This document shows positions 6,711-63,962 of a stretch of DNA of 64,000 nucleotides, piece after piece; within the stretch, counting starts at the first letter, position 1, and every line of letters begins with the position of its first letter. The stretch comes from a virus (taxonomy: Duplodnaviria > Caudoviricetes): IMG/VR virus record IMGVR_UViG_3300031949_000003; one strand, 5' to 3'. Made by a program: the position numbers and the translations under genes. A model generated the notes under the pieces. It worked only from the letters and a program-made list of their open reading frames with translations. It had not been told where the DNA came from and searched no databases.

Positions 6711-6740
6711 ATTATACACATCCGTGGGACTGGGTGTCCA
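6711..6740 (-). promoter_or_regulatory. sigma70-type promoter, probably leaderless
   Basis: TGGACA-18-TATAAT on minus strand, ATG 7 nt downstream. Confidence 0.65.
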
Positions 6741-6862
6741 GATACCCGTATCTCGAAGGCGCAGCAGGCGCAGCCGGTGTGCCCGCTCAAGCCCGGGTGT
6801 CCCGTGCCCCAGGCCCGTGCAGAAGCGTACTTGCGCCTTACCTCGGCCGGCACGCCGCGTGT
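6732..6862 (+). promoter_or_regulatory. sigma54-like promoter with two upstream GGGT-N8-ACCC sites
   Basis: GGCACG-CCGC-GTGT at 6849-6862; sites at 6732-6747 and 6795-6810 (one mismatch). Confidence 0.6.
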
Positions 6863-6875
6863 ACTACGTGGGTGC

Positions 6876-7448
6876 ATGGCGAGCATGGCAACCCGGCACG
6901 ACGTCGAGCAACAGATCCTAACCCTCATCGAGACCTCGATCGAGGACACCGTCATCCCGGACGCGATCGCGGCGCACGCCGACAAACGCGCGGGCAAGCC
7001 GGTCACCAAGACCGACGCCGCGCAGCTCGAAGCCCAGGTCGGCGTGCCGGTTCGCATCCGCCGCCAGCACGGCATGACGCACGTCGGGTGGGCAGCCGGC
7101 AAGGGCGGCAACCCCTGGCTCGACGAGCGCTCGGTCCTGCTCGCGCATTCGGACACCGGCGTCCGTTGGCCGAGCGGCGACGAGCTTCGCAAGAAGGAGC
7201 CCGCGTACTTCAGCGCGCGCGACGAGCGCAACCTTGCCCGCAAGCAGCTCCTGCAAGAGCACGCGACCCTGCGCGGAGCGATCGGAAGCGAGATCCCGGA
7301 CCACGCTGACGAGAGCACGGTCTATCGTGCGGCGCAGGCGATCGTCAAGCTTCGTGAAGCACAGGAGGAGTTGCAGAAGCTCGTCGACTACGGCCAGCCG
7401 CTCCACGTCGTGCGCTTCCCCATCGAGAAGCTCGCGAAGGCCGAGTAG
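6876..7448 (+). CDS. hypothetical protein
   Basis: Strong GC3 codon bias; follows putative promoter. Confidence 0.7.
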   Translation: MASMATRHDVEQQILTLIETSIEDTVIPDAIAAHADKRAGKPVTKTDAAQLEAQVGVPVRIRRQHGMTHVGWAAGKGGNPWLDERSVLLAHSDTGVRWPSGDELRKKEPAYFSARDERNLARKQLLQEHATLRGAIGSEIPDHADESTVYRAAQAIVKLREAQEELQKLVDYGQPLHVVRFPIEKLAKAE

Positions 7449-7457
7449 GATTCGACT

Positions 7458-7697
7458 GTGAGCGTCTTTCGCTTTCTCAGTAGTCAGCGTCGATCGCAGT
7501 ACGGTGTGTCGCGCGGTGACGAGCGCATTGGCTTCGTCACCAAGATCGTGCATCGTCACACCGAGCGAGGGGTCACGCGGAATATCGTCGCCGGGTGGAC
7601 ACCCAGCACGCTCGATGGACGCGATCTCGCGACGGAGAAGACACGCGAAGCCGCCGCCCGTGTCCTATGGTCCCTGCATCAGAAGGAGCAGCGTTGA
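7458..7697 (+). CDS. hypothetical protein
   Basis: ORF track; TAGGAT 6 nt upstream. Confidence 0.55.
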   Translation: MSVFRFLSSQRRSQYGVSRGDERIGFVTKIVHRHTERGVTRNIVAGWTPSTLDGRDLATEKTREAAARVLWSLHQKEQR

Positions 7698-7699
7698 TC

Positions 7700-7843
7700 A
7701 TGTCTGCGGCTACACGCAAGGACGGCGTGCGCTGGATCGACACCACCGATCAGCCTGCGCGCTTCGGCCCCGCGCCGGAACCAAAGAAGACCGCCAAGCA
7801 ACTCGACGAGGAGATCGCCGAGAGACTCGGCATCAAGGATTGA
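7700..7843 (+). CDS. 47-aa peptide ending in QLDEEI tag
   Basis: AAGGAG upstream; PKKTAKQLDEEIAERL. Confidence 0.6.
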   Translation: MSAATRKDGVRWIDTTDQPARFGPAPEPKKTAKQLDEEIAERLGIKD

Positions 7844-7846
7844 CCG

Positions 7847-8662
7847 GTGGCGGTTCGCGACATCGAAGACATGGAGAGACTCGGGGCCCCCGATCCTGGG
7901 ATCTGGCCCACGCGCTTGTCGACGCAGCCGACCAACACTGCACGCGGCGTCGAGCGATTCTTCTCGGGCGGCGGCGGACTCAAGGAACGGCTCGCGGCGC
8001 GTGCCCAAGGCGAAAACATGGTCACCGCTGATCATTCGTGCGTGATCGGAGACGACAGCCAGGCGCTCGCGCACGGAGCGCTCGTGATCGGGACGCGATC
8101 GACCGCGTCTGGGATCGGATCGATCGCGCTCGGCAACCTTCTGAACGCAGAGCGAAATGGACAAATCCTGATCGAATCGGTGTGGGAGCGAACTCGGCGA
8201 ACTCGTCCTCGGGCGTACTTCGAGGGCGAATACGACCTGTTCATGAGCTGTCTCATGACAGTTTCCATCGAACAGTACGCAACCGTAGCGGGTATCGTGA
8301 TGCACGCGGACGTGTACTGCTCGTGCGGACACCGCGCCACCCGCGGGCATGTCTGGGCTAACGCGATCGAGATCGCGGAACCCCTCCAGCAGCTCGCCCG
8401 AATGGTCACCGATCACGAAGGACGTCAGCTGAACAACGTCTGGCTCTTCGAGCCCGGGAATCAGATCGAGCAAATCGACCGAGCGTTTCGATCCCTACGC
8501 TACGCGGGGGAGCCCTTGCCGATAGTCGAGACCGCCGAGGACGCCGCGCGGCTCATGGTCTGGTGCGACGCCCGCCTCCGAGATCTCGCGGGTACGCAGT
8601 ACACGTGGTGGTTGGAGGAGTGGTCTCAGCGCGCAAACGGTATGCTGAAAGAAGCGCTATGA
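7847..8662 (+). CDS. hypothetical protein
   Basis: 271-aa ORF, ATGA overlap downstream. Confidence 0.55.
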   Translation: MAVRDIEDMERLGAPDPGIWPTRLSTQPTNTARGVERFFSGGGGLKERLAARAQGENMVTADHSCVIGDDSQALAHGALVIGTRSTASGIGSIALGNLLNAERNGQILIESVWERTRRTRPRAYFEGEYDLFMSCLMTVSIEQYATVAGIVMHADVYCSCGHRATRGHVWANAIEIAEPLQQLARMVTDHEGRQLNNVWLFEPGNQIEQIDRAFRSLRYAGEPLPIVETAEDAARLMVWCDARLRDLAGTQYTWWLEEWSQRANGMLKEAL

Positions 8663-8979
8663 CCGTCGACGAAGTCGTCACGACGCTCTTTGAGCTTGGC
8701 TTCTCGCCGGCAGGAGAAACGCCCCTGGAGCACGTGCGCATCCCGACGATGAAAGCGCCCGTCCTCGGTGGTATGGGCGGCGAGCGGCGCACGCTCGGTG
8801 GCAGAGCGCGCTACGTATTGTCTGGCACCGATCTACGGGTGACCGTCGGGCCGCGCACGACTAACGTGTACTTCTCACGCAGTGGCAAGACCGAGTTCGT
8901 ACTGAACGAAAATACCAAGGATCTAACCGCGCAGGCACTGCGGGACGTCGTTACCGCGGCAACGGGGAAGGCTACATGA
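8659..8979 (+). CDS. hypothetical protein
   Basis: Overlap-coupled on both sides. Confidence 0.6.
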   Translation: MTVDEVVTTLFELGFSPAGETPLEHVRIPTMKAPVLGGMGGERRTLGGRARYVLSGTDLRVTVGPRTTNVYFSRSGKTEFVLNENTKDLTAQALRDVVTAATGKAT

Positions 8980-9257
8980 AGTCAAAAAAGACGAAGAAGA
9001 CGCACACACAGCTCGACCGCGAGATCACCGCCACGCTCTCCAAGCGAAAGCGCCGGCCGAAGCATCTCCTCACTTCACGGAGGTTGATCGTGATCGAATC
9101 CGACGGTGACCGCGACACGACGACCTGGGAAGACTTCGTCGACGCTAACCGCGAGATGCCGGAGCTAGAAGACGTCGCGGCGGAGCTGCGACGCCACGGT
9201 CGCGCCACGGTCGGCGGTGGCGCGGCGCCGCTGACGGTGATCAGACTCGCCAACTAA
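8976..9257 (+). CDS. hypothetical protein with N-terminal QLDREI tag
   Basis: KKTHTQLDREITATL. Confidence 0.7.
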   Translation: MKSKKTKKTHTQLDREITATLSKRKRRPKHLLTSRRLIVIESDGDRDTTTWEDFVDANREMPELEDVAAELRRHGRATVGGGAAPLTVIRLAN

Positions 9258-9267
9258 GATCGTCGTC

Positions 9268-9990
9268 ATGAGCAGCCTCCATCCATATTTCGTCTACTAC
9301 GGCGGCAAGTGGCGCGCGGCGCCTAGATACCCAGCTCCCCGCCACAACGTGATCGTGGAGCCATTCGCTGGGAGCGCGGGCTACGCGCTGCGGTACCATG
9401 AACGCCAGATCGTACTCGTCGAGAAGGATGAGGTGCTGGCGGAGCTGTGGCGCTACCTCATCCGGGCCACCGCAAACGACTTTCTCAGTCTCCCCGATTT
9501 GCGTGGAGATGCGACGGTAGACGACTTGAGCATCTGCGCCGGAGCCAAAGCGCTGATCGGCTTCTGGCTCAACAAGGGCGTGGAGCGCCCGCGCAAGAGC
9601 CCCAGCGCGTGGATGCGCAGCGGAATCCGTCCCAAGAGCTACTGGGGTCCCGAGGTACGCGCGAGGCTCGCGGCCCAAGCCGGCAAGATCGCGCACTGGC
9701 AGATCATCGAGGGCGACTACACTGCCGCGCCCGATGTCGAAGGGACCTGGTTCATCGATCCGCCGTACGTCGACGCCGGCCGCCAGTACAGGCATTCGTC
9801 CAGAGACATCGACTACGCGGCCCTAGCCTCGTGGTGTCTGGCACGACGCGGTCAAGTGCTGGTCTGCGAGAGCAGCGGAGCGAACTGGCTCCCGTTCGAG
9901 GATCACATCGTCGCGAAGTCGCTCCCAGGATCGCGCGGCAAGGGACACAGCCGCGAAGCTCTATGGACGAATGAAACGGAGGCCGCGTGA
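9268..9990 (+). CDS. DNA adenine methyltransferase (Dam/D12-like)
   Basis: YYGGK, EPFAGSA, FIDPPY motifs. Confidence 0.85.
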   Translation: MSSLHPYFVYYGGKWRAAPRYPAPRHNVIVEPFAGSAGYALRYHERQIVLVEKDEVLAELWRYLIRATANDFLSLPDLRGDATVDDLSICAGAKALIGFWLNKGVERPRKSPSAWMRSGIRPKSYWGPEVRARLAAQAGKIAHWQIIEGDYTAAPDVEGTWFIDPPYVDAGRQYRHSSRDIDYAALASWCLARRGQVLVCESSGANWLPFEDHIVAKSLPGSRGKGHSREALWTNETEAA

Positions 9991-10183
9991 GCGTCGAGTA
10001 TCAGGGCCGCACGATCGACGACGACGAGATCCGTGACATCTTCGCCTCGATCCCCGAGCTTCAGGCCGAGGTGTCTCGCTGCAAGAAGGTACTCCGCAGC
10101 ATCGCGGCGCTCTGCAACGCGCCGCACTGGACGGCAGAGCGTCGGTGGAAAATCGCGGCGCTCGCTTCGGAACGTGAGGCACC

Positions 10184-10792
10184 ATGACCACAAGAACCAT
10201 GACCAGCAAGAAGACTAGCAAGAAGACCGCCGCGAAGCCGACGAAGCAAACCGCGATGTCCGAAGCAGTCGCGGCAGAGACCGTCCGCCGCCTCATGCAA
10301 TCGGCAGGATTCGACGAGGAAGAAGTTTACGGTGGCAAGACCAATCAGCTCCACTTCGCGTCTCGCGAGGAGGGCGACGTCCTCGAAGGTCGCGCCGATC
10401 CTGGGACGGTTCGGTTCGCGCGAGAGAAGGCCAAGGAAGTCGAGACCGCCGTACCCGGCACGCAGGCGCGCGTCGAAGTCGTTGACGAATGGGTGTCGAT
10501 CGAGGTGACGCTGCCAGGGGGTGTTCCGCCACGGCCGCCACCCGCGAAGTCGCCAACAGCCAAGATCGAACCTGCACCCGAGTGGGCTCAGCGTTTTGAA
10601 GAGAGTGCGCCCAAGTACCTCCGGCCCGGCGACGAGGTCAAGTACACGAACTTCACCGTCGGCGGTTCATACGAGGGCACCGCGATCGTGACCTGGGATC
10701 ACGGCAAAAGAGGCGTCGAGGCACGCTCGCTCGGCGGCGAGAAGTTTCGCCTGGAGCGTGCGGCTGACGGATCACTCAGGAGATTCACGTGA
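10184..10792 (+). CDS. hypothetical protein with basic N-terminus
   Basis: Overlap-coupled; K/T-rich start. Confidence 0.65.
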   Translation: MTTRTMTSKKTSKKTAAKPTKQTAMSEAVAAETVRRLMQSAGFDEEEVYGGKTNQLHFASREEGDVLEGRADPGTVRFAREKAKEVETAVPGTQARVEVVDEWVSIEVTLPGGVPPRPPPAKSPTAKIEPAPEWAQRFEESAPKYLRPGDEVKYTNFTVGGSYEGTAIVTWDHGKRGVEARSLGGEKFRLERAADGSLRRFT

Positions 10793-11085
10793 GCGACGAG
10801 TCTGCGAGCCAAGGCGTGCGTCGCGACCAGGCAGCAAAAGGGAGCATGAAGAGCGTCGCGATTCGCTTCCGCAACGCGGCGGCCCGGAAGGCGTATCTCG
10901 CCGCACTTCGCAGACGTTGGAAGGAGGTCGGCTACTCCGCCGACTACATCGACGACTGGATCCGCGCAGTCTTCGATCCGAAGCTGCCGGTCGCGTACGT
11001 ATTCGGTCGCGACGACGCCGATCGAGCTGCCGATGTCGCGCTCGATATCCCCGGAGTCTCTTACACGTTCGAAGAGAGCGCGTGA
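10789..11085 (+). CDS. hypothetical protein
   Basis: GTGA overlap; start could be ATG 10846. Confidence 0.6.
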   Translation: MSDESASQGVRRDQAAKGSMKSVAIRFRNAAARKAYLAALRRRWKEVGYSADYIDDWIRAVFDPKLPVAYVFGRDDADRAADVALDIPGVSYTFEESA

Positions 11086-11163
11086 GCGACGGCACCAGAT
11101 GACCCTCGAAGACTTCAACGCGATCGCCTGTGACTCAGTTCACGACGACATCGTGAGGTTCAC

Positions 11164-11523
11164 GTGAGTGCGCGCGAGCGGCGTAAGCAAGTACGCGAGG
11201 GGCTCGAACGCCGGATGATCACGACCCCCGGCGGGCGCTACATCGACGAAGTCGGTGAAGCGTACAAGATGGGCCAACAGCGTGCGACGCGCGCCTGGAT
11301 CGGCATGAACCCATTTGATCCCGCACACGGCAAGCTCGAACGCGGCGTTGCGCTCGTAGCTCTCGATCTTGTGACCGACGATAAACTTGAGGCTGCACTG
11401 AAGCTGCTCGGGTTCAGATCGCCTGACTTCGATCTCGGTGATCGTGCCGTTAGTGAAGGCTACCGACGCGGCTACGCGAACCAGCTCAAGGACTACTTGA
11501 GCTACGAAGGACGGAAGACGTGA
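11164..11523 (+). CDS. hypothetical protein
   Basis: GAGG upstream, GTGA overlap downstream. Confidence 0.6.
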   Translation: MSARERRKQVREGLERRMITTPGGRYIDEVGEAYKMGQQRATRAWIGMNPFDPAHGKLERGVALVALDLVTDDKLEAALKLLGFRSPDFDLGDRAVSEGYRRGYANQLKDYLSYEGRKT

Positions 11524-11795
11524 CCCTCGAAGACTTCAACACGATCGGCTGGCGCGACTTCCTCCTGTGGGCGTGGAACGAGCCCGAGATGCGTGCGCAG
11601 TTCACCGCGAAGACCGGCATCGAGATCCAATCGGTGACCTCTCCGATCAATGCTGCGATCGACGCGGCAACCGGAGCGAACAAGAGCGTCGCCGCGCGGT
11701 TCATCGAGTGGGCGACGCGCGAACACTGGGGCGTCGAGCATGCCCCCGCGGCGTATCAGAAGGCGATCACCGCCGAGGGGACGCGGAGCACGTGA
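11520..11795 (+). CDS. hypothetical protein
   Basis: Overlap-coupled on both sides. Confidence 0.65.
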   Translation: MTLEDFNTIGWRDFLLWAWNEPEMRAQFTAKTGIEIQSVTSPINAAIDAATGANKSVAARFIEWATREHWGVEHAPAAYQKAITAEGTRST

Positions 11796-13170
11796 ACGCA
11801 CGCGCGATCCGCACGCTGTCGGAGGCGGAAGTAATCCGCCGCTGGGCGGAGCTGTATGCGGCCGGCAAGCACAAGGGGTACGCGCCGCCGAACCCAGAGC
11901 CGTACCTCGGACGCGGCGCGACGTGGGTCGAGATCGAGGTGCCGCACGATCTCTATGACGCGGACTGGAACGCCCCCGAGAGCATGCCGCCGCGGAAGCA
12001 GCGTTCGACGAACGCGCATATCGCAACTACGAAGGTATGGGCGATGACGACGAGAACGTCGTTATTGAGCGAGGCGGTCGCGAGCTTCGTCGTTTCGGTC
12101 CTGAGCTTCATCAGCCAACTTATTTCGGAAGTCCACGCTCGAAGACAGCACGACGTCACTCGACGAAGAAGAAGTCTCCTGCCCAACTGGAACGCGAGAT
12201 CGCCGAAGCTCTCTATCCCAAACGCGACCGTAGGTCGTACTCGACAAAAAAACCGGCTCTAACAGAGCCGAAGGCCCGTGAGTACACGAAGCTCGCGACC
12301 GCGACGAACGTCCCGCGCATCGAGAAGTACATCAACGATTTCGCTTACTCAACAAACTACCGTGTCGATCCTCAGCGAGCGCTTGAAAGATTTCGCGGTC
12401 GAGTTGGTGAGCCGACTTTTTCTTTTTCTTCGGCATGTCTCTTCCTCCCCCTGCCTCAGCGCATGCGTCCGAACAAAAATCCACCACGGTAACGCATCAC
12501 GAACCAGTTCTCCGGCGGCACCTTGACCGGATTCGTGATTTGAAGCGTCTCTCACTCCACCAGGGAGCCAAGATCGTCTACGCGCCGGATCCACTCCACC
12601 AAGAAGGCAGGATCCTCTACGACCCGCCGCTGGATCCACAAGGATGTCGCGCGCAGCTACAGCGTTCCCGAGGACGTCGTGCGACGCATCTACGCGACCG
12701 TGCAGACCGCCAAGCGTCAGGGTCTCTACGGTGGGTACTATCTCGATCTTCTTGAGCGCAACGTCGGTCGAAAGCTCGTGGGAGCCGAGTACACCGTCAG
12801 CACGCTGGCGAAAGAGCACCTGGGCTACGATCCACCAAGCGGCTACCAGGGTCCGAAGCCGAAGGGCTCTGCGAAGGAACCCCAGCGCCCGAAGTACGAC
12901 GATCCGAAGGTTCGAGCTGCGGATCCGATCCGCTCAAGCGCAGAGAGGATCATCAAAGCCGTCCTCGATCGGAGGAGAGACCCGCGCTTCGGTTGGGACG
13001 AGTCGAATGATTCGCAGGATCGAGAGCTCCTCCAGCGGGCGGCGGACGAGCTGGACGTGGCCGCGGACCTCACCGAGGAAGCTGGAGCGCGTGTGTGGGC
13101 CGGGACGCTTCGCGAGCGCGCCAAGCAGGCCCGGCGAGGCGACTACAGGCTCCTGGACGCTTACAACTGA
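11792..13170 (+). pseudogene. mosaic of out-of-frame gene fragments carrying HSTKK and QLEREI tags
   Basis: Coding-like frames switch near 11980 and 12380-12540; frame 12544-13170 is open with no ATG/GTG/TTG until 12679. Confidence 0.5.
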
Positions 13171-13351
13171 AGCTGCCTTCGCGACGACGCCTCGCGATCT
13201 GGGCAGCCGGGCGGCGATCTTCTTGCGCGACATGGCCTCAAGAAGACCGCGATGACGCTGCATCGCGCCGACGCGCACGTGCCTCTCGATCGTCCCGGCG
13301 CGCAGTAAGTCATTCGTGACCCGGTCGCGTGTTGCGGTTAGGATGCGACCG

Positions 13352-31261: not shown

Positions 31262-32116
31262 TCAGGCCGACTCTTCGATCTCGAGCCACGATTCGAGATC
31301 GGTCGTGGTCGGTGTGAAGTCGCCCGTTGTGGTGACCAGGACGCCCACCAGATCGCCCGCGACGAACGTGTCGATCCCGGCTGCTTGCGTGGTTCTGCCG
31401 TCCGTGCCCGCCGCGAGGGCAACAGCGAGCGTCCCGGCGACCCCGTTGATCGAAACCGTGATCGTCAACGTTCCAGCCGTCACCGCTTCGGTCAGCCGCG
31501 CGTTGAGCCCGACGATCGAGCCCGCGCGCATCATCGGGATGTCGTCGAAGTTGGTCGAGACTTGCGCGAACAGGGGAACGTTCGTTTGTGTCGCAGCGAC
31601 GTTCTGCTGCGCCCACTGTTCCGGCGGCGCGAAGCGTGGAGTCGCATCACCCGTCGGTCCTGTCGCGCCCGTCGATCCGATCGTGCCTGTCGGACCAGTC
31701 GCGCCCGTCGGACCAGTCGCTCCGATCGCGCCCGTCGGCCCTGTCGGCCCTAGCGCTCCGGTCGAGCCTGTCGAGCCCGTCGGTCCGGTGGCGCCGATCG
31801 CGCCCGTCGGTCCCGTCGGCCCCGTCGTTCCAACCGCTCCAGTCGGTCCCGTCGGTCCCGTCGGTCCCGTCGGTCCGGTGGCGCCTGTCGGTCCAGTGGC
31901 CCCGGTGTTCGCAGCGAGTCCCATCGGCCCCGTCGAGCCTGTGGGACCTGTCGGACCTGTGGGTCCAGTCGGTCCTGTGGTGCCGGTGCCGCCTCCAGCG
32001 GGCCCTGTCGGCCCGGTGAATCCGTCGTGTCCTCGACGGCCCCGCTTGCCGCGTTCGCCACGTTCACACTCATCGTCGTCGTCGCAGCCGGGCTGCGTGA
32101 TCTGGATTTCGGCCAC
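31262..32116 (-). CDS. collagen-like protein (GPT repeats, BclA-like layout)
   Basis: Long GxT triplet run plus beta-rich C-terminal domain. Confidence 0.85.
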
Positions 32117-43219: not shown

Positions 43220-43999
43220 TCATGGCAGCACCTCCGGCGCATGCTCCGCCAGGAACACCCGCCACGAGCCCGGCTTCTTCTCGCCGCCGCGCGTGCCCTT
43301 GACGCCGCGGCCCCACAGCCCCTCGATCTTGATCAGATTCGGTCGGGCCCGATCTTCCATCTCGACCGCGCGGCGTGCGAGGTCAGGATGTCGCTTGGCG
43401 AGCTGGATCAGCTCGGCAGGCTTGAGCGAAGGGCAGTACCAACAGCTCGACTTCGGCGGTACCGGCAGACCCGCCGCCGCGATCTCAGCCTCGCAGCGGC
43501 TACGATCCCAGCCCCATTCGCGCAGGGGGTAGATCCAGGTCCACGGCCCCTTACTCTGTACACCGCCGCGCCGCGAGTCGCACGGACCGGCGTCGTATCC
43601 GATGGCCCGCTGGATCTTGCCACCGGCCTTGATGTGAGTCGCGAAGTGCTTGCCGCACGCCGTGTCGAGCGGCTTACCCTTCCACTTGAGCGAGCATCCC
43701 TTGCGACCGCCGAACGCGAGCGACGGCAGTGTCTTGTTGACGAGGCAGTTCTCTTCGAGCGTGGTGTAGTGCCCGTTCCGTCCGCGCTGCAAGACGTACT
43801 GCACGTCGGTGATCGCGGGGAAGCCAACGCGGTCGAGCCACTCGTCGATGATCGGCCGATACGCGTACGTCTCCGGCCACTCGTTACCAACCTGCGCGTG
43901 GCCGATCCAGTCGGGCCGGATGCCCCGCTGCCACCAGCCGACGAGCACGGCGGTCGAGTCGACGCCCAGGCCATACGAAAGTGCGAGAGGATCGATCAC
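43220..43999 (-). CDS. PAPS-reductase-like PP-loop (adenine nucleotide alpha hydrolase) protein
   Basis: SYGLGVDST, CSLKWK, YPL, PPKSSCWYCP. Confidence 0.8.
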   Translation of the reverse strand: MIDPLALSYGLGVDSTAVLVGWWQRGIRPDWIGHAQVGNEWPETYAYRPIIDEWLDRVGFPAITDVQYVLQRGRNGHYTTLEENCLVNKTLPSLAFGGRKGCSLKWKGKPLDTACGKHFATHIKAGGKIQRAIGYDAGPCDSRRGGVQSKGPWTWIYPLREWGWDRSRCEAEIAAAGLPVPPKSSCWYCPSLKPAELIQLAKRHPDLARRAVEMEDRARPNLIKIEGLWGRGVKGTRGGEKKPGSWRVFLAEHAPEVLP

Positions 44000-47324: not shown

Positions 47325-48074
47325 TGCTACTCGCCCCACCCGCGCAGGTCGTTGGCGACATCGAGCCAATACTGCGACTTCGCGAGCATCTTCTCCGCAG
47401 CTTTCGCGCGTCCAGCCTCCAGCTCCTCGTTGTAGTTGCCGAGATAGCGGGCCGCCATCATCTCAGCGTGCACGATGCGCTCCTCGACGGTGCGCTTGGT
47501 GCGCGTCTTCGCGGTCATCTACCTCTTCCTCCGGCGCCGGCCGATCGCGGAGGCGACGAGATCGCCCGCCATGTAGCCCGCGATGCCCGCGCAGATGCCA
47601 CGCGGCTCGGCCGCGATGTTGAACGACCGCATCACGTGCAAGAAGAAGTAGGCGACGAGGATCGCGACCATGACGATGACGAAACGGCGGACGGTGTCAC
47701 TCACGGCTTGACCTCCGGCTTGGGCGCGAGCTTGTAGAACGCCTCGAACGCCGCGTCCTCGACCACGCGCGCCGGCACCATGCCATAGCGCTGACGCATG
47801 AACTTGTCGTCGTCAAGCACCAGCTCGACCGCAGGGCCGATCACGGCCCGCGGCTGCTCTTGCATGAGCAGCCCGTACGCCATGTCCACCGCACGCTTGC
47901 GGACCTCGGATCGTGTCCAGATCTTGCCCTTGAGGCTCGTGATCATGTAGCGCTCTTGCCACTCCTTCGCGGTCACGACGCCCCCTCCGTGCGCGTCTGC
48001 TTGCCGGTGTAGACGGCAAGAACACGGCTGCGGAAGGTGATGTCGGCGTCGATGCTCATGACCCCACGTAGAAA

Positions 48075-48216
48075 GCAGTTCGCGTGCCCACGCGACCGCG
48101 TCGCAAACGTGCGTCGCCAAATCCCGGGTACCTTGGCACCCGGTCTCCAGGAGTCGACATCCCACGCGGGTCATGCGGATCGGCGTGGCGCGCAAGACAC
48201 GGGTTCTGAACTACCC
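48075..48216 (-). promoter_or_regulatory. sigma54-like promoter with two upstream GGGT-N8-ACCC sites
   Basis: GGCACG-CGAA-CTGC at 48088-48075; sites at 48126-48141 and 48201-48216. Confidence 0.65.
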
Positions 48217-50383: not shown

Positions 50384-51319
50384 TCACGCGGCTTCCTTCG
50401 TGGCGCTGCCTTCTTCGAGGTACCCACAGCCAGTCGCCTTCGTTGCGCGGTTCGCCGCGCCGCAGATCTTGCACCGGGCGACTTTGGGCTTGTACTTCTT
50501 CTCGACGAACATGGGCAACGGCGTCCCCTTGCCCTTCTTGAAGCCCATGATCGAGAGCTTCAGGCCGTCGTGCACGCCTTCCTTGGGCTTGGTGATCGGG
50601 CGATCCGCCTCCATCTTGACGACGCGTGCGTACTGATCGGGCAGCTCGCGCGCGAATGTCTTCCAGTCGCCGAGGCTTCCGAACGGACAAAACACGCACG
50701 CACTCTTGCGCGGGATCGGGTAGCCGCTCGCACGCACGATTGCCTCGCAGCGGCAGCGGCAAAGGCCCTGCTCCATGAGCGGGAAGCGGTTGTGGCGGCG
50801 AGCGCGCGGCTTGGCGCCCTTCTTCACGCGCTTGGGGGCCTTGAGCTTCGCGCCCGTGTTCGGATCTTTCTTCGCGCGCTTCTCCTCGCCAGCCTCGAAG
50901 CCGATCCAGACTTCAATGTCCTGACCGGGAAAGCGATCGGCCGCCCAACGCTCGAAGCGCTCGACCTTGGCGATCGTGGTGCACTGGCGGCCCGGGCCTG
51001 CCATCGGCATCGACTTGCGCGCCTCCCACCAGGCGAACAGCGATCGGACCTCGCCCTTGGTGCCGCCGCGCACGGGGTAGTTGATGTGATCGATCTTGAC
51101 GAACTCGATACCGTACTGATCGCAGATCGGCCGCACGACCTCGTCGATGTGGCGATAGGTGCCAGGCCACTCGCCGGGATCCAGCGGGTGCCCGGTGTCC
51201 ATGAAGACCACGACGTCCGGCAGCTCGCCGCGATCGATCGCGGTCAAGAGCATTACGAACGAGTCGAGGCCGCCGCCGTACGAGAGGATCTTGGGCCAGG
51301 CGCGAAGGTCGTTGCTCAT
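50384..51319 (-). CDS. PAPS-reductase-like PP-loop protein
   Basis: SYGGGLDS, FMDTG, CTTIAK, IGF, FPL, RKSACVFCP. Confidence 0.82.
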   Translation of the reverse strand: MSNDLRAWPKILSYGGGLDSFVMLLTAIDRGELPDVVVFMDTGHPLDPGEWPGTYRHIDEVVRPICDQYGIEFVKIDHINYPVRGGTKGEVRSLFAWWEARKSMPMAGPGRQCTTIAKVERFERWAADRFPGQDIEVWIGFEAGEEKRAKKDPNTGAKLKAPKRVKKGAKPRARRHNRFPLMEQGLCRCRCEAIVRASGYPIPRKSACVFCPFGSLGDWKTFARELPDQYARVVKMEADRPITKPKEGVHDGLKLSIMGFKKGKGTPLPMFVEKKYKPKVARCKICGAANRATKATGCGYLEEGSATKEAA

Positions 51320-52077: not shown

Positions 52078-52533
52078 TCACGACGACGCTCCTTCGAGAG
52101 AGCTAGCACGAGCGGCACTCGCCCAGCGCGACATCGCGCGGCGCAGCTCGTCGTAGTGCTCGGCCTCGGCGTGCAGCCGCGCAAGCTCCTCGTCGAGCGG
52201 CTTCTCCGGGTCGAACCGAGCCATGGTGCGCATCGCCAGGCTGCGCGTGTCGTGGTCGTACTTCGTGCCCGGCTGCACGAGCTGCGCGGTGAACTCCCAG
52301 AAGAAGTGGAAGTTCCCCTCGTAGCCGTCCCAGCTCCAGTCACCGACGTGGAGCGGACAGTCGAATTGGAGGAGATCCTTCAGCGCGCGGGAATAGCGGT
52401 CGAACGCGTCCGCGTAGTGCAGACTCGGCCCGAGCCCGTGGAGCGGGGCACCCGCCTCCTTGAGGCACGAGGCCGCATAGGTCATCGCGTCACGCAGCTT
52501 CTGCTCCTTCGACTGTCGCTTCTTCGTCGCCAT
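52078..52533 (-). CDS. hypothetical protein, first gene of the long leftward tract
   Basis: ATG 13 nt after a consensus sigma54 site. Confidence 0.7.
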   Translation of the reverse strand: MATKKRQSKEQKLRDAMTYAASCLKEAGAPLHGLGPSLHYADAFDRYSRALKDLLQFDCPLHVGDWSWDGYEGNFHFFWEFTAQLVQPGTKYDHDTRSLAMRTMARFDPEKPLDEELARLHAEAEHYDELRRAMSRWASAARASSLEGASS

Positions 52534-52545
52534 GCTTCTACCAGG

Positions 52546-52678
52546 AGCAACCGCCGCGCCAGCCTGACAGCATAGTGAGTGCACGCCAAGTCCCAGCACC
52601 GATGCTCGTGGCATCGTGTACCCAGGGCCTGACGTTCACAGATTCCGGCGCGCTCAAGACACGGGTAGCCGCTTACCC
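52546..52678 (-). promoter_or_regulatory. sigma54 promoter with upstream GGGT-N8-ACCC site(s)
   Basis: TGGCGCG-GCGG-TTGCT at 52561-52546; site 52663-52678 and degenerate site 52608-52623. Confidence 0.75.
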
Positions 52679-52751
52679 AGGGCACGGCTGATCACGAGCT
52701 TGACGCGCCGGAAGAGACCTCGGTCGTCTCTTCGTAGGACGTGTCAGGTCG

Positions 52752-52767
52752 TGGAATGCAGGCTGCA
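52752..52767 (+). promoter_or_regulatory. divergent sigma54-like promoter
   Basis: TGGAATG-CAGG-CTGCA; ATG 14 nt after the GC. Confidence 0.6.
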
Positions 52768-52780
52768 CTTGACGACAAGC

Positions 52781-53161
52781 ATGACGAAGACGACGCATGT
52801 GAAGATCCTCTGGTGCATGCCGATCGCGGGACCGCTCTACCGCGCGCAGGGCGAAGACGGCGACCTGTACTGCTACGACTGGACGTTCCGTGCCGCGACC
52901 ACGATCGACGGAGTCGCTGACGGCCGAACGTTCGAGCACGAGACGTATATGGTGCGTGGAGCGGTCAAGAGCCCGGAGGGCTTCTGGGTCGCCAACTACA
53001 ATCACAAGAACGATGTCGAAGCGTTCTGCCGACGCGTCGAGGAGCGCGGATCGATCGATCTCGCTTATTGGATCGAGACGACCGGCCAGAACTTCGATCT
53101 GGAGGCCGCGTTGAAGGAAGAAGCCGCGCGCGAGCAACTCGAACGCGGAGGGCGCTACTGA
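52781..53161 (+). CDS. hypothetical protein
   Basis: GC3 bias; TGATG overlap with 53161..53451. Confidence 0.7.
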   Translation: MTKTTHVKILWCMPIAGPLYRAQGEDGDLYCYDWTFRAATTIDGVADGRTFEHETYMVRGAVKSPEGFWVANYNHKNDVEAFCRRVEERGSIDLAYWIETTGQNFDLEAALKEEAAREQLERGGRY

Positions 53162-54694: not shown

Positions 54695-54720
54695 TCGATC
54701 CTCCGCTTAGAGCGTTGATC

Positions 54721-57584: not shown

Positions 57585-58313
57585 CTACGAAGGTGTGCCG
57601 CCGCTGGTCGACAGCAGCCACCAGCCGCCGAGGATAGCGTCCCAGACGAGAATGACTCCGCCGGCCTCCCCGATCGATAACGTGATCACCGTCCAACCGA
57701 TAAAGTTGGCGGGGGTGAGCGTGAACTGGATGTTGGTGGCTGCGCTGGTCGTGATCTGCTTGGTCTGCCCATCGACCGTGCCGTCTGCCAAGGTGAGAGG
57801 CACCAAGCTCGGCGCCTCTGGGACAAGGCCGCTGTGCACCACGAAGGTGACGTCGGGCGCCGGATCCACCGCACCGCCCGCGAGCGTCGGAATGTCCAGG
57901 TGCTCGGTCGTCGGTGCGATGTCACCGGTGCCGGTAGGGCCGGTGGAGCCGGTGGAGCCGTCAGGGCCGGTGGGTCCCGTCGGGCCAGTGGGTCCCGTAC
58001 TGCCGCTGCCCGTCAATCCAATCGGCCCCGTCGGTCCGGTTGGTCCGATCGGTCCGTCGCTCGGTCCAGTCGGTCCGGTCGATCCCGTAGGTCCCGTACT
58101 GTCGCTGCCGGTAGCTCCTGTGGATCCTGTCGGACCTGTCGGACCCGTCGGGCCTGTCGGACCCGTCGGGCCTGTCGGTCCGTCGCTCGGTCCCGTCGGT
58201 CCCGTCGGTCCTGTCGCGCCGTCGAGTCCATCGTGACCGCGCTTGCCCCGCTTGCCGCGCTCGCCTTCGCAGTCGTCGGTGCAATCCGGGATACGCCTGG
58301 TGATTTCGGCCAT
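57585..58313 (-). CDS. collagen-like protein with distinct C-terminal domain
   Basis: GPT repeats; [13 protein letters not shown]; TTGCCT-17-TAGCGT upstream. Confidence 0.85.
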
Positions 58314-58559
58314 GGTGGGATCAACGCTAGTTCAAGGCAGGATCACAGGCAATTTTTCGTCCTGCCATCGAAACCCGAAACCTCATTGGAAATCGGGCCC
58401 TTTAGACACAGCCAGGGGTGCGCGCTCTGCGAAGCGCCGCGTGTGATCACTGGATGTTCACCGAGCTGCTGAGGAAGGCGGTCGCCGAACGCGTGAGGTT
58501 CCGGGCATGGTTCCGTGCCCGACCTGCCACGATCACAAGTTCGTGCGGATCGTGGATGG

Positions 58560-58910
58560 TCACGTCGTTCCGCCGCCGCCGCACAGCGCCGGCCACAGCG
58601 GATCCAGGCACCGAACGGATCGCCGAGTAAACAGCCTCAACGCATGAGGCGATCGGCGATCGCGCGCGGCGTAGATCGACAGGTCGACGTCAGCGCCGAG
58701 CTTGCCGGTTCGATCGAGTTGGTTCGCGATGCGATAGATCGCCTCGGCCTCGCGCTCCAAGACCTTCGGGAACGTCTTCACGCGCTTCCGCATGTCGGCC
58801 GCTTCGAGATCGTCGAACAACCCGAACTGATGCGTTACGCGCTGCCAATCGTCATCCGTTGGCGTCGTCTTCGATTTCGGCGATGTCTTCCCAGGCTTCT
58901 TTGTTGCCAC
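58560..58910 (-). CDS. hypothetical protein
   Basis: ORF track; basic N-terminus. Confidence 0.5.
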   Translation of the reverse strand: MATKKPGKTSPKSKTTPTDDDWQRVTHQFGLFDDLEAADMRKRVKTFPKVLEREAEAIYRIANQLDRTGKLGADVDLSIYAARDRRSPHALRLFTRRSVRCLDPLWPALCGGGGTT

Positions 58911-59068
58911 CGACGCCGATCATCGAGCGGTCTGTACAGGAATGCGAATTGCCGTCGGTCGCGGCCTGGAGTACAACCGGGCCCTCCAAACGAGGCCGCG
59001 CCAACCTGTAATCGCGATCGATTGCCTCCGCGATCGCGCGGATTGAAACACCCGAGCATGTCGCACTC

Positions 59069-59788
<720 letters not shown>

Positions 59789-59790
59789 AC

Positions 59791-60204
59791 GTGCAGGTAC
59801 GGCCTGACGAGATGGTCATGATCCGCAACACGAAAGCCGCTCAGAGGGAGCTACTACGTGTGGCGCTCGTGCACCCTCCGTTTCCCATCGTGCTGCGCGT
59901 TCGGGACTTCCGCCGATCGCTGTTCGAGCTGGAAATGCTGATGACGGTGCCGGACACGAACAGCGGGCGCTACATCTGCCAGACGCTCGTGTTCGAGTGT
60001 GCGCTTCCCGTCTCACGACACAAATTCATCCGCTTCGTTGAAACGGCGCTGCGCGAAGCGGTCATGCACGAACTCTACGAGAGCCTTCACGTAGATGGCA
60101 AACGAGTACGTGACCCGCATGAAAGCCGTGAGGCTGGACGCGCGTGGACCGTGGTCGAAGACATGAGATGCTTTACACGCGCGAGAACGCGCTCGCGGGC
60201 GTGA
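59791..60204 (+). CDS. hypothetical protein
   Basis: HELYESLHVDGKRVRDPH C-terminal motif. Confidence 0.6.
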   Translation: MQVRPDEMVMIRNTKAAQRELLRVALVHPPFPIVLRVRDFRRSLFELEMLMTVPDTNSGRYICQTLVFECALPVSRHKFIRFVETALREAVMHELYESLHVDGKRVRDPHESREAGRAWTVVEDMRCFTRARTRSRA

Positions 60205-60218
60205 CGATTGTCGATTCT

Positions 60219-60746
60219 TCACTCCTCGATAATCGCGCCAGCGCGCTCGGCCGCGGCGCGGCCCGCCTTCGTGAACGGGCCGACCGCGACCAGCTCAGGC
60301 GAGACCTCGGATCGGTACGCGTCGAACAGGACCTGCGACAGCCCGCGCCCGCGCGCGTCGGGATCGACCCAGATGTGGTGCACGTATGGTCGGCCGTACT
60401 CGACGGCGTAGGCGAGTCCGGCTAGCGGATCGGCCACGCCTCCGTTGGACAAAACGATCAAGATCCGCCCCGCACGAGCCCCGCCGTAGTTCTTACCCGT
60501 CGTGAAGATCAAGTCCCAAGGTTCGGGCACGCCCACGAGCGAGATCTCGATCTGTTCGCGCCGCGTGATGCGCTCATCGATGAGCGCTTCGTGCACGCGC
60601 TCACGCGTCACGCGCTCCATGCCGCCGTTGCCGCCGTTGCCGCCGTTGCCGTTGCCTCGCGCCAGTGTCTCGTTGATCTCGCGATCGAGCTGTTTGGCCG
60701 GCGTCTTCTTCGCCGGAGCCGGTACCCGCGGCACGCGTTTCTTCAT
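60219..60746 (-). CDS. GNAT-like acetyltransferase with QLDREI tag
   Basis: HIWVDPDARGRGLSQVL acetyl-CoA motif A; KKTPAKQLDREINETL. Confidence 0.65.
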   Translation of the reverse strand: MKKRVPRVPAPAKKTPAKQLDREINETLARGNGNGGNGGNGGMERVTRERVHEALIDERITRREQIEISLVGVPEPWDLIFTTGKNYGGARAGRILIVLSNGGVADPLAGLAYAVEYGRPYVHHIWVDPDARGRGLSQVLFDAYRSEVSPELVAVGPFTKAGRAAAERAGAIIEE

Positions 60747-60924
60747 TACGACACCAGCACCAACTCGGATACCGGGAAGATCCACGGCCCACGGCCGAGC
60801 TGCTTGTGCCACTCGATCACGTACGCATCGGAGCCGACGATCCGCTCGACGGCAGCCGTGGCCCCGTCAGGGAGCATCACGATGGCTCCAGGCCGGATCG
60901 ATTCATCTTCCTCGCGTGGCAGCT

Positions 60925-61413
60925 TCATGGCGTCTCTCCACTCATCGGCTCTTCACTCACCGGCTCTTCACTCACCGGCTCTTCACTCACCGGCTCTTCA
61001 CTCACCGGCTCTTCACTCACCGGCTCTTCACTCGCCGGCGCCTCGTCGGCAAGAGCGTCAGCCATCGCCCGCTCGGCCAGCTCGGCGTGCACGTAGCGGG
61101 TCAACTCGCGCTCGATCGCACCGTCCGAGAGCGTCGCCGCCGCGAGGTCGCCCGTCGTGACGCCGAGCTTGTCCTGGATCACGGCGCACGCCGCGTCGAC
61201 CGCGCGCTCGACGAGCGCCTCGATCGCGACCTCGCACGTCATGATCGCGGTCGGGCCGGCGTGCCCGTTGACGTTGACGCCGCGAAACGACCGCAGCGCG
61301 TTGTTCCACGTCGCACGGTTGATGAGGCCGCGCGTGTAGAGCACGTTGATCTGCGCCTCGGTAAGCGCGGCGCTCTCTTTCGTCTCTTTCGTCTCTTTCG
61401 TCTCTTCCTTCAT
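60925..61413 (-). CDS. hypothetical protein with KET and EEPVS repeats
   Basis: GGAG upstream; repeats at both termini. Confidence 0.65.
   Translation of the reverse strand: MKEETKETKETKESAALTEAQINVLYTRGLINRATWNNALRSFRGVNVNGHAGPTAIMTCEVAIEALVERAVDAACAVIQDKLGVTTGDLAAATLSDGAIERELTRYVHAELAERAMADALADEAPASEEPVSEEPVSEEPVSEEPVSEEPVSEEPMSGETP
60946..61033. repeat. 15-bp tandem repeat, about 6 copies
   Basis: cggctcttcactcac unit. Confidence 0.95.
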
Positions 61414-61527
61414 GATCGTCTCCCTTCGCGCGAGTTGAACGCCCAGTGTTGCCTTTAAGTGCCATGAGCTAGGTTGCGCTTCGCGATCGCTATTCGCGAT
61501 TGCGATTGCGCGGATTGAAACAAACCT

Positions 61528-61944
61528 TCAGTGCCAATCGAGCACGATCTTCGTGTCCGGCGGCAGCGCGCGGACGTATGCCGCGATCGCCGTCTGATAC
61601 GGCCCGCCGCGATGGCCGTCGTAACGGAAGTGCTCCTCCAACCACGGCAGGAGGTGTTGCGGCGAGACGACCTCGTACGGAGAGCCGTAGGAGTCCTTCT
61701 CGCGGATCGTCCCGTAGATAGGCTCGCCCTGGTAATAACCCTCGGCGACACGAGCCCCGACGTAGGACGTCACGTCATGCCCGACCGGCATCTTCGAGAG
61801 ATGGGGCTTCACCATCTTCTCGAAAGCGAGGTAGTCGTCATGGCTGACGCCCCCCAGATCCAGGATCGTGTGGGAGTGGCCCCACAGACGTCCGTCGCTC
61901 ACGTGCCAGTGCTCGCAAGGCAGTAGGCGAAGATCGAGGCCCAT
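61528..61944 (-). CDS. hypothetical protein
   Basis: GGGAG upstream; MGLDL...VLDWH. Confidence 0.7.
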   Translation of the reverse strand: MGLDLRLLPCEHWHVSDGRLWGHSHTILDLGGVSHDDYLAFEKMVKPHLSKMPVGHDVTSYVGARVAEGYYQGEPIYGTIREKDSYGSPYEVVSPQHLLPWLEEHFRYDGHRGGPYQTAIAAYVRALPPDTKIVLDWH

Positions 61945-61956
61945 TACGCAGCTCCC

Positions 61957-62214
61957 TTACTCGTTATAGTGATTCGCCGTGGCCGACTTGCCGGCTTCGG
62001 TGATGGTCACCTTCTGCACTGCCGGATCGGCGCGATCGATGTCGATCCAGCCGAGGCTCTGCGCACGCTGCGCTCCTTGGTTCACGTAGTCCTCCGAGTA
62101 ACCGGACGCGTCGAATCGACGCTTGAGCGCGTCCATGTTGGTCGGGCTCTCCTCCACCACACCCGCGACCGTCATCGCGGCCTTGAGAACATCGTCGTTG
62201 CTCATCGTCGTCAT
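61957..62214 (-). CDS. small winged-helix-like protein
   Basis: AQSLGWI...TITEAGK. Confidence 0.55.
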   Translation of the reverse strand: MTTMSNDDVLKAAMTVAGVVEESPTNMDALKRRFDASGYSEDYVNQGAQRAQSLGWIDIDRADPAVQKVTITEAGKSATANHYNE

Positions 62215-62489
62215 CTCTCTTCTCTTCTCCTTGCTTGTTGTTGTTCCACTGCTCGATCACGTACGAGGCAGCGCCTCCGGCAGCGTCGAATTATCGACGG
62301 CCTTCTGCATGGTGCGGCCGGTGCCGGCACTCGTCGACTTCATCTGGTTTCGCGGCTCGTGCGCGAGGTGCCAGCCCACATCGTCGGGGTAGAAGACGAA
62401 CGTCCGATCGCCCTGGTGGGCGAACCAGTAGTCACGGCGGCTGCGATACAGCCGGACACGCTCGCCCCGGATCACCACGCTGCGGTGGC

Positions 62490-63731
62490 TCACGATACAC
62501 CGCCCTTCCCTGCGCCCACCGCACTGCGTGCGGCCTTCTTCGGCTTCTTTGCCTTCTTCGCAGCCGCAGCTTCCTTTGCCGCCTTCTGCGCCATCAGATC
62601 TGCGTAGCGAGCCAGCAGCTTCGCGGGCTCGGTGTACTTGACCTCGATCCCGTAGAGCGCGCCGACCTCGCAGCGCACGGCGCAGAGCAGCTCCGCCTCC
62701 TCCGCAGTCGGCATGACCTTGGGCCAACCCTTCGTGAAGAGCAGATGCTTGGGGATGCGCTTCTCGATCTCGACGCGCTTGGCGGCGAGCTGCTTCGCAC
62801 GTACGAGCGCCGCGCGCTCGGCGTCGCTGAGCAAGTGCGAAGCGACATCGGCGAGCCAGCGGCTGCCCTGGAACGCGAAACCGGAGCGGATCTCCAGGCC
62901 CACCACCGTGTGGAACACAGGCTGATTGGCGGTGATCGACGCCGAGACGCGCTGGTCGGAAAGATCCTGCATGATGCAGTAGCGGCACGAGATCCGCTTC
63001 ATGCCGAGTCCATAGCCCTCGTGCATCTGGAAGCCGCGCGCCGCGCAGAGCGCGAACACCTCTTGCTCGGTCCAGGCCGCGATCGGGTTCCAATCGACGC
63101 CGCTGGTCCCGAGACGCTGATTGGTGAGCCGCTTGTTCATCTTCGAGGTCGGCGCGTTCGTGCGCGGAGATTTCTTGCGTCCTTTGCCCTCTTCACGGCG
63201 GATACCGCACGCGCTGATGATCCGGCGCGCGGGGAAGCGCTTGACCAGCTCGGACGCGATCGGCGCGCTCTTGAGTTCCGACGTGCAGAAGCGCATCGAC
63301 GGCGTGGACCACGGCAAGATGATCTTGACGCACGCCAGATCGATGTAGCGCTTGACGTTGTTCTCCCAACGCTTGATCCAGCGCTTCATCATCCCGCCCG
63401 CGGCGCGACGAGTGACGATCAGCTCGACGCCCAAGAACGCCGCGAGGCGCTCGCAGGTCGGGAGCGAGTCGTCCCATTCGACGTTGAAGGCGGGATCGGG
63501 ATCGCCGAGGTCTGCGTGCACGAGCACGACCGGCCCCTTGTGTCCGACCGCGCGTAGATACTCGACGACTGCGATTCCAGCCGTTATTGAATCCTTGCCC
63601 CCCGAGACACCGATCGCGATCGGTGCGTCCGCCGCGATCAGCGCGAGCACCTCGTCGTCCAGCTCGACACCCCGCTCGATCAGGTTGGGTGGCATCGGGC
63701 GCTTGAGACGAAGGGTGACCAGGTCCTGCAC
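62490..63731 (-). CDS. phosphoadenosine phosphosulfate reductase family protein (start uncertain)
   Basis: GVSGGKDS, HADLG, RFCTSELK, GIRREE, NPIAAWT, RISCRYC. Confidence 0.88.
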   Translation of the reverse strand: MQDLVTLRLKRPMPPNLIERGVELDDEVLALIAADAPIAIGVSGGKDSITAGIAVVEYLRAVGHKGPVVLVHADLGDPDPAFNVEWDDSLPTCERLAAFLGVELIVTRRAAGGMMKRWIKRWENNVKRYIDLACVKIILPWSTPSMRFCTSELKSAPIASELVKRFPARRIISACGIRREEGKGRKKSPRTNAPTSKMNKRLTNQRLGTSGVDWNPIAAWTEQEVFALCAARGFQMHEGYGLGMKRISCRYCIMQDLSDQRVSASITANQPVFHTVVGLEIRSGFAFQGSRWLADVASHLLSDAERAALVRAKQLAAKRVEIEKRIPKHLLFTKGWPKVMPTAEEAELLCAVRCEVGALYGIEVKYTEPAKLLARYADLMAQKAAKEAAAAKKAKKPKKAARSAVGAGKGGVS

Positions 63732-63945
63732 GTTAGAGCGCTCCTTCATGACGACGCACGACCTCGTAGATCGCATCCCAGAACGACTCCGTGGCGCGAG
63801 GCACCGGGAAGAGGTCTGGGCTAGTGGCGCGGAGGTGATCGAACACCTCGGCTGCCGATTCTTGGTCGGTGGGAACGTGGCCGATCGCCGCGAGGAAACG
63901 GCCTTTCAGGTTAGTCGGGTCAGCGATCGTCATGCTTGATGATGT

Positions 63946-63962
63946 TCCACGCGGGATGCCAA
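63946..63962 (-). promoter_or_regulatory. sigma54-like promoter for 63733..63933
   Basis: TTGGCAT-CCCG-CGTGGA (GG instead of GC at -12); ATG 13 nt downstream. Confidence 0.45.

Follow-up and report, generated by a model that had tools for sequence, protein, structure and literature searches.

Probable enhancer-dependent sigma-54 promoters with phased upstream palindromes in a huge phage-like element, and their counterparts in a myxobacterial lineage

The viral record IMGVR_UViG_3300031949_000003 (Duplodnaviria; Caudoviricetes) includes a stretch of 64 kb, hereafter the window, which makes up 19% of a contig of 332,853 bp. A first-pass annotation, made by reading the letters of this stretch, had drawn attention to a repeated promoter of the sigma-54 type, preceded by GGGT-N8-ACCC palindromes and followed almost immediately by a start codon. 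Here we show that this arrangement – box, palindromes and short leader – recurs in metagenomic relatives of the element, that the palindromes are helically phased with the box, and that the same cassette is present in myxobacterial genomes, including those of the probable host lineage. We consider it probable that this huge phage-like element uses the cassettes as enhancer-dependent sigma-54 (RpoN) promoters, copied from a regulon of its host and giving rise to nearly leaderless transcripts.

Promoter boxes and palindromes in the window

Five boxes of the form GG-N10-G had been proposed, each 13–15 nt before an ATG, and all five were found where they had been placed. Distances below start at the second base of the -12 doublet and end at the A of the ATG.

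6849..6862, plus strand: -24/-12 box, GGCACGCCGCGTGT; GT at -12; 13 nt to the ATG at 6876
48075..48088, minus strand: -24/-12 box, GGCACGCGAACTGC; 15 nt to the ATG at 48059
52547..52560, minus strand: -24/-12 box, within TGGCGCGGCGGTTGCT; 13 nt to the ATG at 52533
52753..52766, plus strand: -24/-12 box, within TGGAATGCAGGCTGCA; 14 nt to the ATG at 52781; box and upstream flank kept in relatives L003 and L004
63947..63960, minus strand: -24/-12 box, within TGGCATCCCGCGTGGA; GG at -12; 13 nt to the ATG at 63933

When all GG-N10-GC positions in the 64 kb are ranked by a crude sigma-54 consensus score, 52560(-) comes first and 48088(-) second. A further candidate, 54836(-), was rejected as a promoter, because it lies inside a gene that is conserved over its full length. 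An iterated position weight matrix became over-fitted to GGCACGCG and dropped 52560; it was excluded from counting.

The exact palindrome GGGT-N8-ACCC occurs four times in the window (at 6732, 48126, 48201 and 52663), compared to 0.4 times in shuffled sequence, and none of 100 shuffles reached four. All four exact copies are intergenic. The annotation had listed six sites, arranged in pairs at gaps of 38/101, 37/112 and 47/102 nt from the GG; the gaps are correct, while two of the six sites, at 6795 and 52608, turn out to be imperfect.

6732..6747: predicted distal activator site of the 6849 promoter; exact; centre 109 nt upstream of the GG
6795..6810: predicted proximal activator site of the 6849 promoter; one mismatch, GGGT-N8-CCCC
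48201..48216: predicted distal activator site of the 48088 promoter; exact; centre 120 nt from the GG
48126..48141: predicted proximal activator site of the 48088 promoter; exact, within a longer palindrome, CCGGGT-N8-ACCCGG; centre 45 nt from the GG
52663..52678: predicted activator site common to two divergent promoters; exact; GG of 52560(-) at 110 nt, GG of 52753(+) at 82 nt
52608..52623: proximal site of the 52560 promoter, decayed; GTGG-N8-ACCC, one half-site kept

None of the palindromes overlaps a -24/-12 box, and only that at 6732 overlaps a -35 element, which belongs to a separate sigma-70-like promoter (see below).

Conservation and helical phasing in relatives

Relatives of the element were obtained from a metagenome scan anchored on the PAPS-reductase-like gene at 62490-63749. 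This yielded nine metagenomic sequences with 72–82% amino-acid identity, on contigs of up to 231 kb; the relatives of 201–231 kb include Ga0163162_10000022 and Ga0207710_10000039. The nine carry 5–8 exact palindromes per ~20 kb, often paired 54–76 nt apart, with the same box beside them. Enrichment of palindromes upstream of -24/-12 boxes, which the first-pass annotation had anticipated, is borne out: 24 of 43 loosely defined box-plus-ATG candidates from the window and relatives have a palindrome no more than 220 nt upstream, and nearly all of the good boxes among the 43 do so.

Alignment of 28 non-redundant promoters (window and relatives) on the GG gives tGGCAcGc-N4-TGCa/t, with an invariant GG and an exact spacing of 10 nt. 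A purine is conserved 12 nt after the C of the -12 doublet, with the ATG 3 nt beyond it; the distance from doublet to ATG is usually 13–14 nt. Judged by its bases, this is the extended sigma-54 consensus, not merely two doublets.

Palindrome centres lie 35–148 nt upstream of the GG, and the distances cluster at about 35, 45, 57, 66, 77, 89, 100, 110, 120 and 130 nt. The 33 centre-to-GG distances are best fitted by a period of 10.75 nt, with a resultant of 0.60, a value matched by none of 20,000 random sets, although orthologous promoters in relatives are non-independent points and the significance is overstated to that extent. The helical phasing suggested from three pairs of sites thus holds in the larger sample, and with the 28-instance consensus and the host-lineage counterparts described below it supports the proposal of a repeated sigma-54-type promoter with activator sites and short leaders, making up a regulon of small-gene operons.

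The way in which the cassette is conserved is also informative. In the orthologous divergent control region (52520-52800 in the window, and its equivalents in L004 and L003) both boxes and the palindromes stand out as conserved blocks. With respect to the ATG the cassette keeps a fixed position and orientation. The spacers and the DNA between motifs, on the other hand, vary freely, and this variation disfavours a mobile repeat. The counterpart of the decayed site at 52608 is a perfect palindrome in L003 and departs from one by a single mismatch in L004. The window, L004 and L003 share, letter for letter, a 13-nt block, CGCCAAGTCCCAG (plus strand), which in the window occupies 52585-52597, in the gap that separates the 52560 box from its proximal site. 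The box at 63960(-) is conserved in L001, L004 and L008, and its activator sites would fall past the window edge. The orthologous promoter in L001 has a sole exact site, centred 78 nt upstream of the GG; by this ortholog the edge site probably lies near 64030-64045, about 30 nt from where it had been predicted.

An asymmetric extension accompanies some of the distal palindromes. The annotation had described a conserved flank and orientation, and both are real.

6748..6759, plus strand: conserved flank of the distal site, GTATCTCGAAGG; part of the recurrent ACCC-Gnn-TCTYGAGC extension
48190-48200: flank of the 48201 distal site, CAAGACAC read on the plus strand
52652-52662: flank of the 52663 site; same asymmetric extension

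In relatives the flank recurs as ACCC-G(T/G)n-TCT(C/T)GAGC, and in the window together with L001, L002 and L005 the extension reads ACCC-G(T/G)n-TCT(C/T)GAGC(A/G)CC. Occurrences of TCTYGAG lie exactly 3 nt after a palindrome in 8 of 64 cases. A second protein could bind this flank, which does not in every case face the nearest promoter (as at position 9704 of L001). A sigma-70 or extracytoplasmic function (ECF) reading of the distal flank was rejected, because the 14-nt spacing from TCRAGA to TACCCA and the hexamers themselves are unsuitable.

Host lineage and host counterparts of the cassette

Two genes captured by the element provide information on its host. In a protein search the IF3 of the element is 77% identical to proteins named Kofleriaceae in NCBI records. 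When 121 genomes of the class were sampled, seven stood apart as a group, with IF3 at 65–70% identity over its full length, all others being at 62% or below. DnaJ is 65–67% identical to the Kofleriaceae-like group, compared to 39–42% for Polyangiaceae (39–47% for IF3 and DnaJ together). The host is probably a Kofleriaceae-like myxobacterium (Myxococcota), an assignment based on these two captured genes plus the shared cassette. The gene rpoN is present in all five Kofleriaceae-like genomes tested and in four Polyangiaceae genomes (Sigma54_DBD model above cut-off).

Host counterparts of the cassette were reached by two independent routes. The first was a pattern scan of one genome per species (185,579 species) for two palindromes plus GGCACG-N5-TGC. 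This gave just 8 matches, four of them in Polyangiaceae or Polyangium assemblies. In each of these four genomes, of 5.7–11.9 Mb, the scan locus is the sole match to a relaxed pattern with a single palindrome, and all four loci directly adjoin a gene of one activator family, comprising an AAA+ sigma-54 interaction domain and HTH_8 with no sensor domain. One of the four proteins has the GAFTGA motif, its gene being divergent from flgB-fliE-fliF; the other three are orthologs without the GAFTGA loop, in which the recognition helix is near-identical.

The second route was a search of Kofleriaceae-like genomes with the helix-turn-helix of the Polyangiaceae activator alone. Among the best matches is a minimal activator of 339 aa (L046:646-1665) with GAFTGA and HTH_8 and, again, no sensor domain. 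In genome G114 its gene is preceded by an exact GGGTAATTTTCTACCC located 112 nt upstream of a GG-N10-GT box, which is itself 16 nt before the ATG; in G249 a GGGT-N8-ACCC palindrome lies ~147 nt upstream of the start of the gene. The more specific palindrome GGGTA-N6-TACCC is rare in Kofleriaceae-like genomes (13 sites in five genomes). In each of the five, one such site, with an A/T-rich spacer, is found 62–83 nt upstream of a GG-N10-G(C/T) box, and from that box it is 13–14 nt to the start codon of a gene for a FliA/WhiG-like sigma factor. In G249 the promoter of flgB, CGGCACGCGTCGTGCT, is almost the phage consensus, with a GTG 12 nt later. Since the host promoters show the short-leader geometry, we take this geometry to be native to the host lineage and multiplied by the element.

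Three side observations concern the host genomes and the activator family. The Polyangium proteins without GAFTGA (L012:4798-5886, L016:6667-7716 and L017:5511-6575) have an 18-residue deletion and a Walker A of GAPGTGKR, and keep the helix-turn-helix; their genes stand behind a sigma-54 promoter with GGGTC-N6-GACCC sites. By binding DNA, such a protein may antagonise the true activator. At L020:5461-6168, on an unrelated IMG/VR contig, there is a gene for a small protein of ~120 aa with no AAA+ domain; its C-terminus shares 60% identity with HTH_8 of the Polyangiaceae activator family. It may represent a competitor, carried by a phage, for these same DNA sites; there are no palindromes in the 10.7 kb of L020 that were read. 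Flagellar basal-body genes (flgB-like, fliE, fliF and flgE/F/G-like) occur in Polyangiaceae-labelled assemblies and in a Kofleriaceae-like genome (L014:1-5543; L064). Cultured myxobacteria are known as non-flagellated gliders.

A model for expression from the cassette

The sequence architecture, its conservation and phasing, the host counterparts and the presence of rpoN in genomes of the host lineage are matters of observation. From them we infer that the palindromes are bound, that the promoters need sigma-54, where transcription starts, and which protein is the activator and where it comes from. Host RNA polymerase with sigma-54 would bind the GG-N10-GC box and be held there as a closed complex. 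An AAA+ activator with a Fis-type helix-turn-helix, of a kind that binds dimeric sites, would occupy the GGGT(A)-N6-(T)ACCC palindromes, whose centres lie ~35–135 nt upstream of the GG and along a single helical face; looping of the DNA would bring activator and polymerase together, and the promoter would be opened using ATP. The predicted start is ~12 nt after the C of the -12 doublet, where the aligned promoters have their conserved purine, and ~3 nt before the ATG, so the mRNAs would be nearly leaderless.

The most likely candidate for the activator is the sensor-less host protein of 339 aa. Because the host lineage has the same cassette before a FliA-like sigma gene, the element probably uses a host activator; by copying the host enhancer, it would have tied its operons to the activity of a host regulator. 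More specifically, huge soil phages may have copied the enhancer of a flagellar-type sigma-54 regulon of the host, in which the minimal sensor-less activator would act on a fliA-like gene, such that phage operons fire only when that regulator is active. We put this forward tentatively, as possible rather than probable. If true, the phage would read the developmental or motility state of its host, as opposed to following a fixed clock.

A number of observations weigh against the proposal that these are sigma-54 promoters copied from the host, beyond the shared ancestry of some points in the phasing test. The canonical GC at -12 is missing from two of the five window boxes (GT at 6849, GG at 63960). 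The signal in the window by itself is modest: loosely defined boxes are at chance level (152 observed, 175 simulated), and the composite of box, ATG and palindrome within 160 nt occurs 4 times where 0.47 are expected (p ~0.01), which is modestly above chance and suggestive, not conclusive. The strong support for the cassette comes from the relatives, not from the window alone. On the host side, sites are single with A/T-rich spacers, whereas phage sites are mostly paired with mixed spacers; no palindrome with up to one mismatch was found in the ~600 nt available upstream of flgB in G249; and a scan of 401 Myxococcota genomes for a single palindrome plus box gave 31 matches, similar to the control number and thus no enrichment, just one further match being beside an activator gene. 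The 64 kb in view, out of 333 kb, would also leave room for an activator or sigma factor of the phage's own. Finally, no capsid, terminase or other hallmark gene was found in the 64-kb window, and the identity of the element as a phage rests on indirect evidence.

One qualification attaches to the idea of an element-wide regulon, part of the original proposal: the five promoters are not spread across the window, being bunched at 6.8 kb and at 48–64 kb.

Alternative explanations

The same sigma-54 cassette could be served by an activator encoded elsewhere in the 333 kb of the element, in which case the regulon would be a self-contained temporal class and would not reflect a host regulator. Only 19% of the contig is in view, IF3 and DnaJ are other host genes that the element has taken up, and in spacer composition and pairing the phage sites depart from those of the host – all of which would fit such an arrangement. 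The annotation had proposed looking for an element-encoded bacterial enhancer-binding protein or RpoN. None was found in the 64-kb window or in ~110 kb of relatives, and the same is true of HTH_8 homologs. A six-frame motif search (GAFTGA, activator Walker A, RpoN box) gave nothing relevant; searching all open reading frames (ORFs) of the window and relatives with Polyangium activator-like proteins (phmmer) gave no match; and a Pfam tally of 97 window proteins contained no activator, sigma factor or helix-turn-helix family. Among the best 120 relatives of either host activator none could be assigned to the known relatives of the element, although this is a weak test. On balance we regard an element-encoded activator as rather unlikely, and prefer the host activator.

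It is a good deal harder to sustain the view that a repressor, or some other regulator lacking AAA+, uses the palindromes as operators, and that the box is read by a phage sigma factor or polymerase whose specificity resembles that of sigma-54. Dyads with a 12-bp half-site spacing fit any dimeric helix-turn-helix protein, the site at 6.74 kb overlaps a sigma-70-type -35, and huge phages often have their own transcription machinery. However, the sites lie 35–135 nt upstream of the box, do not overlap it and are helically phased with it, the box fits the extended sigma-54 consensus beyond GG and GC, and host genomes place the same cassette beside genes for sigma-54 activators; the explanation is accordingly improbable.

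That the palindromes are a dispersed repeat (repetitive extragenic palindromic or miniature inverted-repeat transposable element-like) or recombinase sites (the latter an outcome raised by the annotation itself), with a coincidental resemblance to promoters, is very improbable: short recurrent intergenic palindromes are typical of such repeats, but here only short motif blocks are conserved amid variable spacers and inter-motif DNA, the sites have a fixed placement and direction with respect to the start codon, neither target duplications nor terminal repeats were seen, and the blocks are kept at orthologous promoters across relatives that are 72–82% identical.

Genes behind the promoters and the divergent region at 6.74 kb

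The genes placed under the predicted control of the five boxes are mostly small; the last two entries are the divergent sigma-70-like promoter at 6.74 kb and the ORF behind it.

6876..7448, plus strand: first gene behind the 6849 promoter; 190 aa; no family match
47973..48059, minus strand: first ORF behind the 48088 promoter; 28 codons
52078..52533, minus strand: first gene behind the 52560 promoter; 151 aa; homolog 59% identical in L004
52781..53161, plus strand: first gene behind the 52753 promoter; 126 aa
63733..63933, minus strand: first gene behind the 63960 promoter; 66 aa; 88% identical in L001
6711..6740, minus strand: sigma-70-like promoter, TGGACA-18-TATAAT; 11 of 12 consensus matches
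6494..6703, minus strand: ORF of 69 codons; ATG 7 nt after TATAAT (leaderless type); CxxC motif; no Pfam match

The stop of the 28-codon ORF overlaps (GTGA) the GTG start of a 91-aa gene at 47701-47976, which suggests translational coupling from the mini-ORF to the larger gene. The 66-aa gene is followed by the PAPS-reductase-like gene at 62490-63749.

At 6.74 kb the annotation had proposed a switch between sigma-70 and sigma-54. Its structural part is real: the distal site at 6732 overlaps the -35 of the divergent TGGACA-18-TATAAT promoter. As to function, activator bound at 6732 could shut off the 69-codon gene while turning on the 6849 operon. NtrC has such a double action at glnA.

Gene content of the element

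The window has 64% G+C and is dense in small ORFs without a family; it also encodes a C5 methylase and complete copies of DnaJ and IF3. No nucleotide match to it was found in phage and plasmid collections, no relatives by protein were found in IMG/VR, an exact 40-mer from the end of the window is absent from IMG/VR, and an Rfam scan of the window found no family. L011 is an IMG/VR contig with tail-spike-like genes and the same control cassette, though no window protein matched it. That the element is a huge phage we infer from its gene content, its size class and L011.

Three PAPS-reductase-like paralogs, all on the minus strand, lie within 20 kb (43220-43999, 50384-51319 and 62490-63749); the PAPS-reductase families of the window are common in phages. 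Relatives pair PAPS-reductase-like genes with ParB-like genes behind the same promoters (L002:14394-15431 and L005:20127-21002). Several collagen-repeat proteins are encoded within 13834-58313 (for example at 31262-32116 and 57585-58313) and have strong matches to tail-fibre PHROG families, the only structural-type signal in the window.

The IF3 homolog (59069-59788, plus strand) is complete and has a C-terminal tail. The IF3 of Escherichia coli selects against leaderless mRNAs. This element, with its own IF3 and many transcripts that would be near-leaderless, may tune that step; under the tentative reading of a copied host regulon, the IF3 homolog might favour translation of the nearly leaderless sigma-54 transcripts.

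Comparison with known systems

Should the model hold, a large group of uncultured viruses gates its genes through an ATP-dependent host activator. Regulatory mimicry would then be a new signal for host prediction – here the cassette and the captured IF3 and DnaJ genes indicate one and the same lineage – and the promoters would provide a natural set of leaderless sigma-54 transcripts, as well as a testable pair of site and activator for an uncharacterised family of sensor-less activators in Myxococcota.

The cassette shares with classical sigma-54 promoters (glnAp2 with NtrC, nifH with NifA and its TGT-N10-ACA sites, pspA with PspF) the same -24/-12 box with its exact 10-nt spacing, and paired dyad sites on one helical face ~70–160 nt upstream of the predicted start. 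NtrC sites overlap the sigma-70 promoter glnAp1, and the activator site at 6.74 kb likewise overlaps a sigma-70-type promoter. It differs from these promoters in being present in many copies on a phage-like element, in having the start codon just 13–15 nt after the -12 doublet, in showing no evident IHF-type site, and in the extra TCTYGAGC flank beside some of the distal sites.

There is a likeness, too, to flagellar sigma-54 hierarchies, in which regulators of the FleQ, FlrA or FlbD type act upstream of fliA and basal-body operons. The host cassette is similarly found at a FliA-like sigma gene, the Polyangiaceae cassette at flgB-fliE-fliF beside the activator gene, and automatic names from the Joint Genome Institute label relatives of the activator as flagellar regulators. 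Unlike those regulators the candidate activator has no receiver or FleQ domain, and by the FliE model flagellar genes are present in only one of five genomes of the host lineage. We know of no precedent for a link from a flagellar sigma-54 regulon to phage promoters.

A system closer in phylum is that of PexR in Myxococcus xanthus: this protein binds tandem interrupted palindromes (CACCG-N6-CGGTG) located ahead of a promoter read by sigma-54, and has a second role as repressor of an overlapping promoter of the sigma-A type (PMC12754779). Transcripts without a leader have been noted in myxobacteria. Phylum, tandem interrupted palindromes and the layout of overlapping promoters are all shared with the cassette of the element. 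The half-site of PexR is different, PexR has a GAF sensor domain where the candidate 339-aa activator has none, and it controls chromosomal stress genes, not a mobile element.

Textbook accounts of phage transcription involve host sigma-70, phage sigma factors or phage polymerases. In the literature on the use of sigma-54 by phages we found a single case, the 58-kb phage YuA, and nothing closer. YuA, a Pseudomonas phage, is reported to depend on both host sigma-54 and sigma-70; a single sigma-54-like promoter has been mapped in it (Ceyssens et al. 2008, as cited in PMC10914365). YuA has one such promoter and no described enhancer regulon; here, by contrast, a repeated unit with phased enhancer-like sites is conserved across a family of contigs of 200–500 kb.

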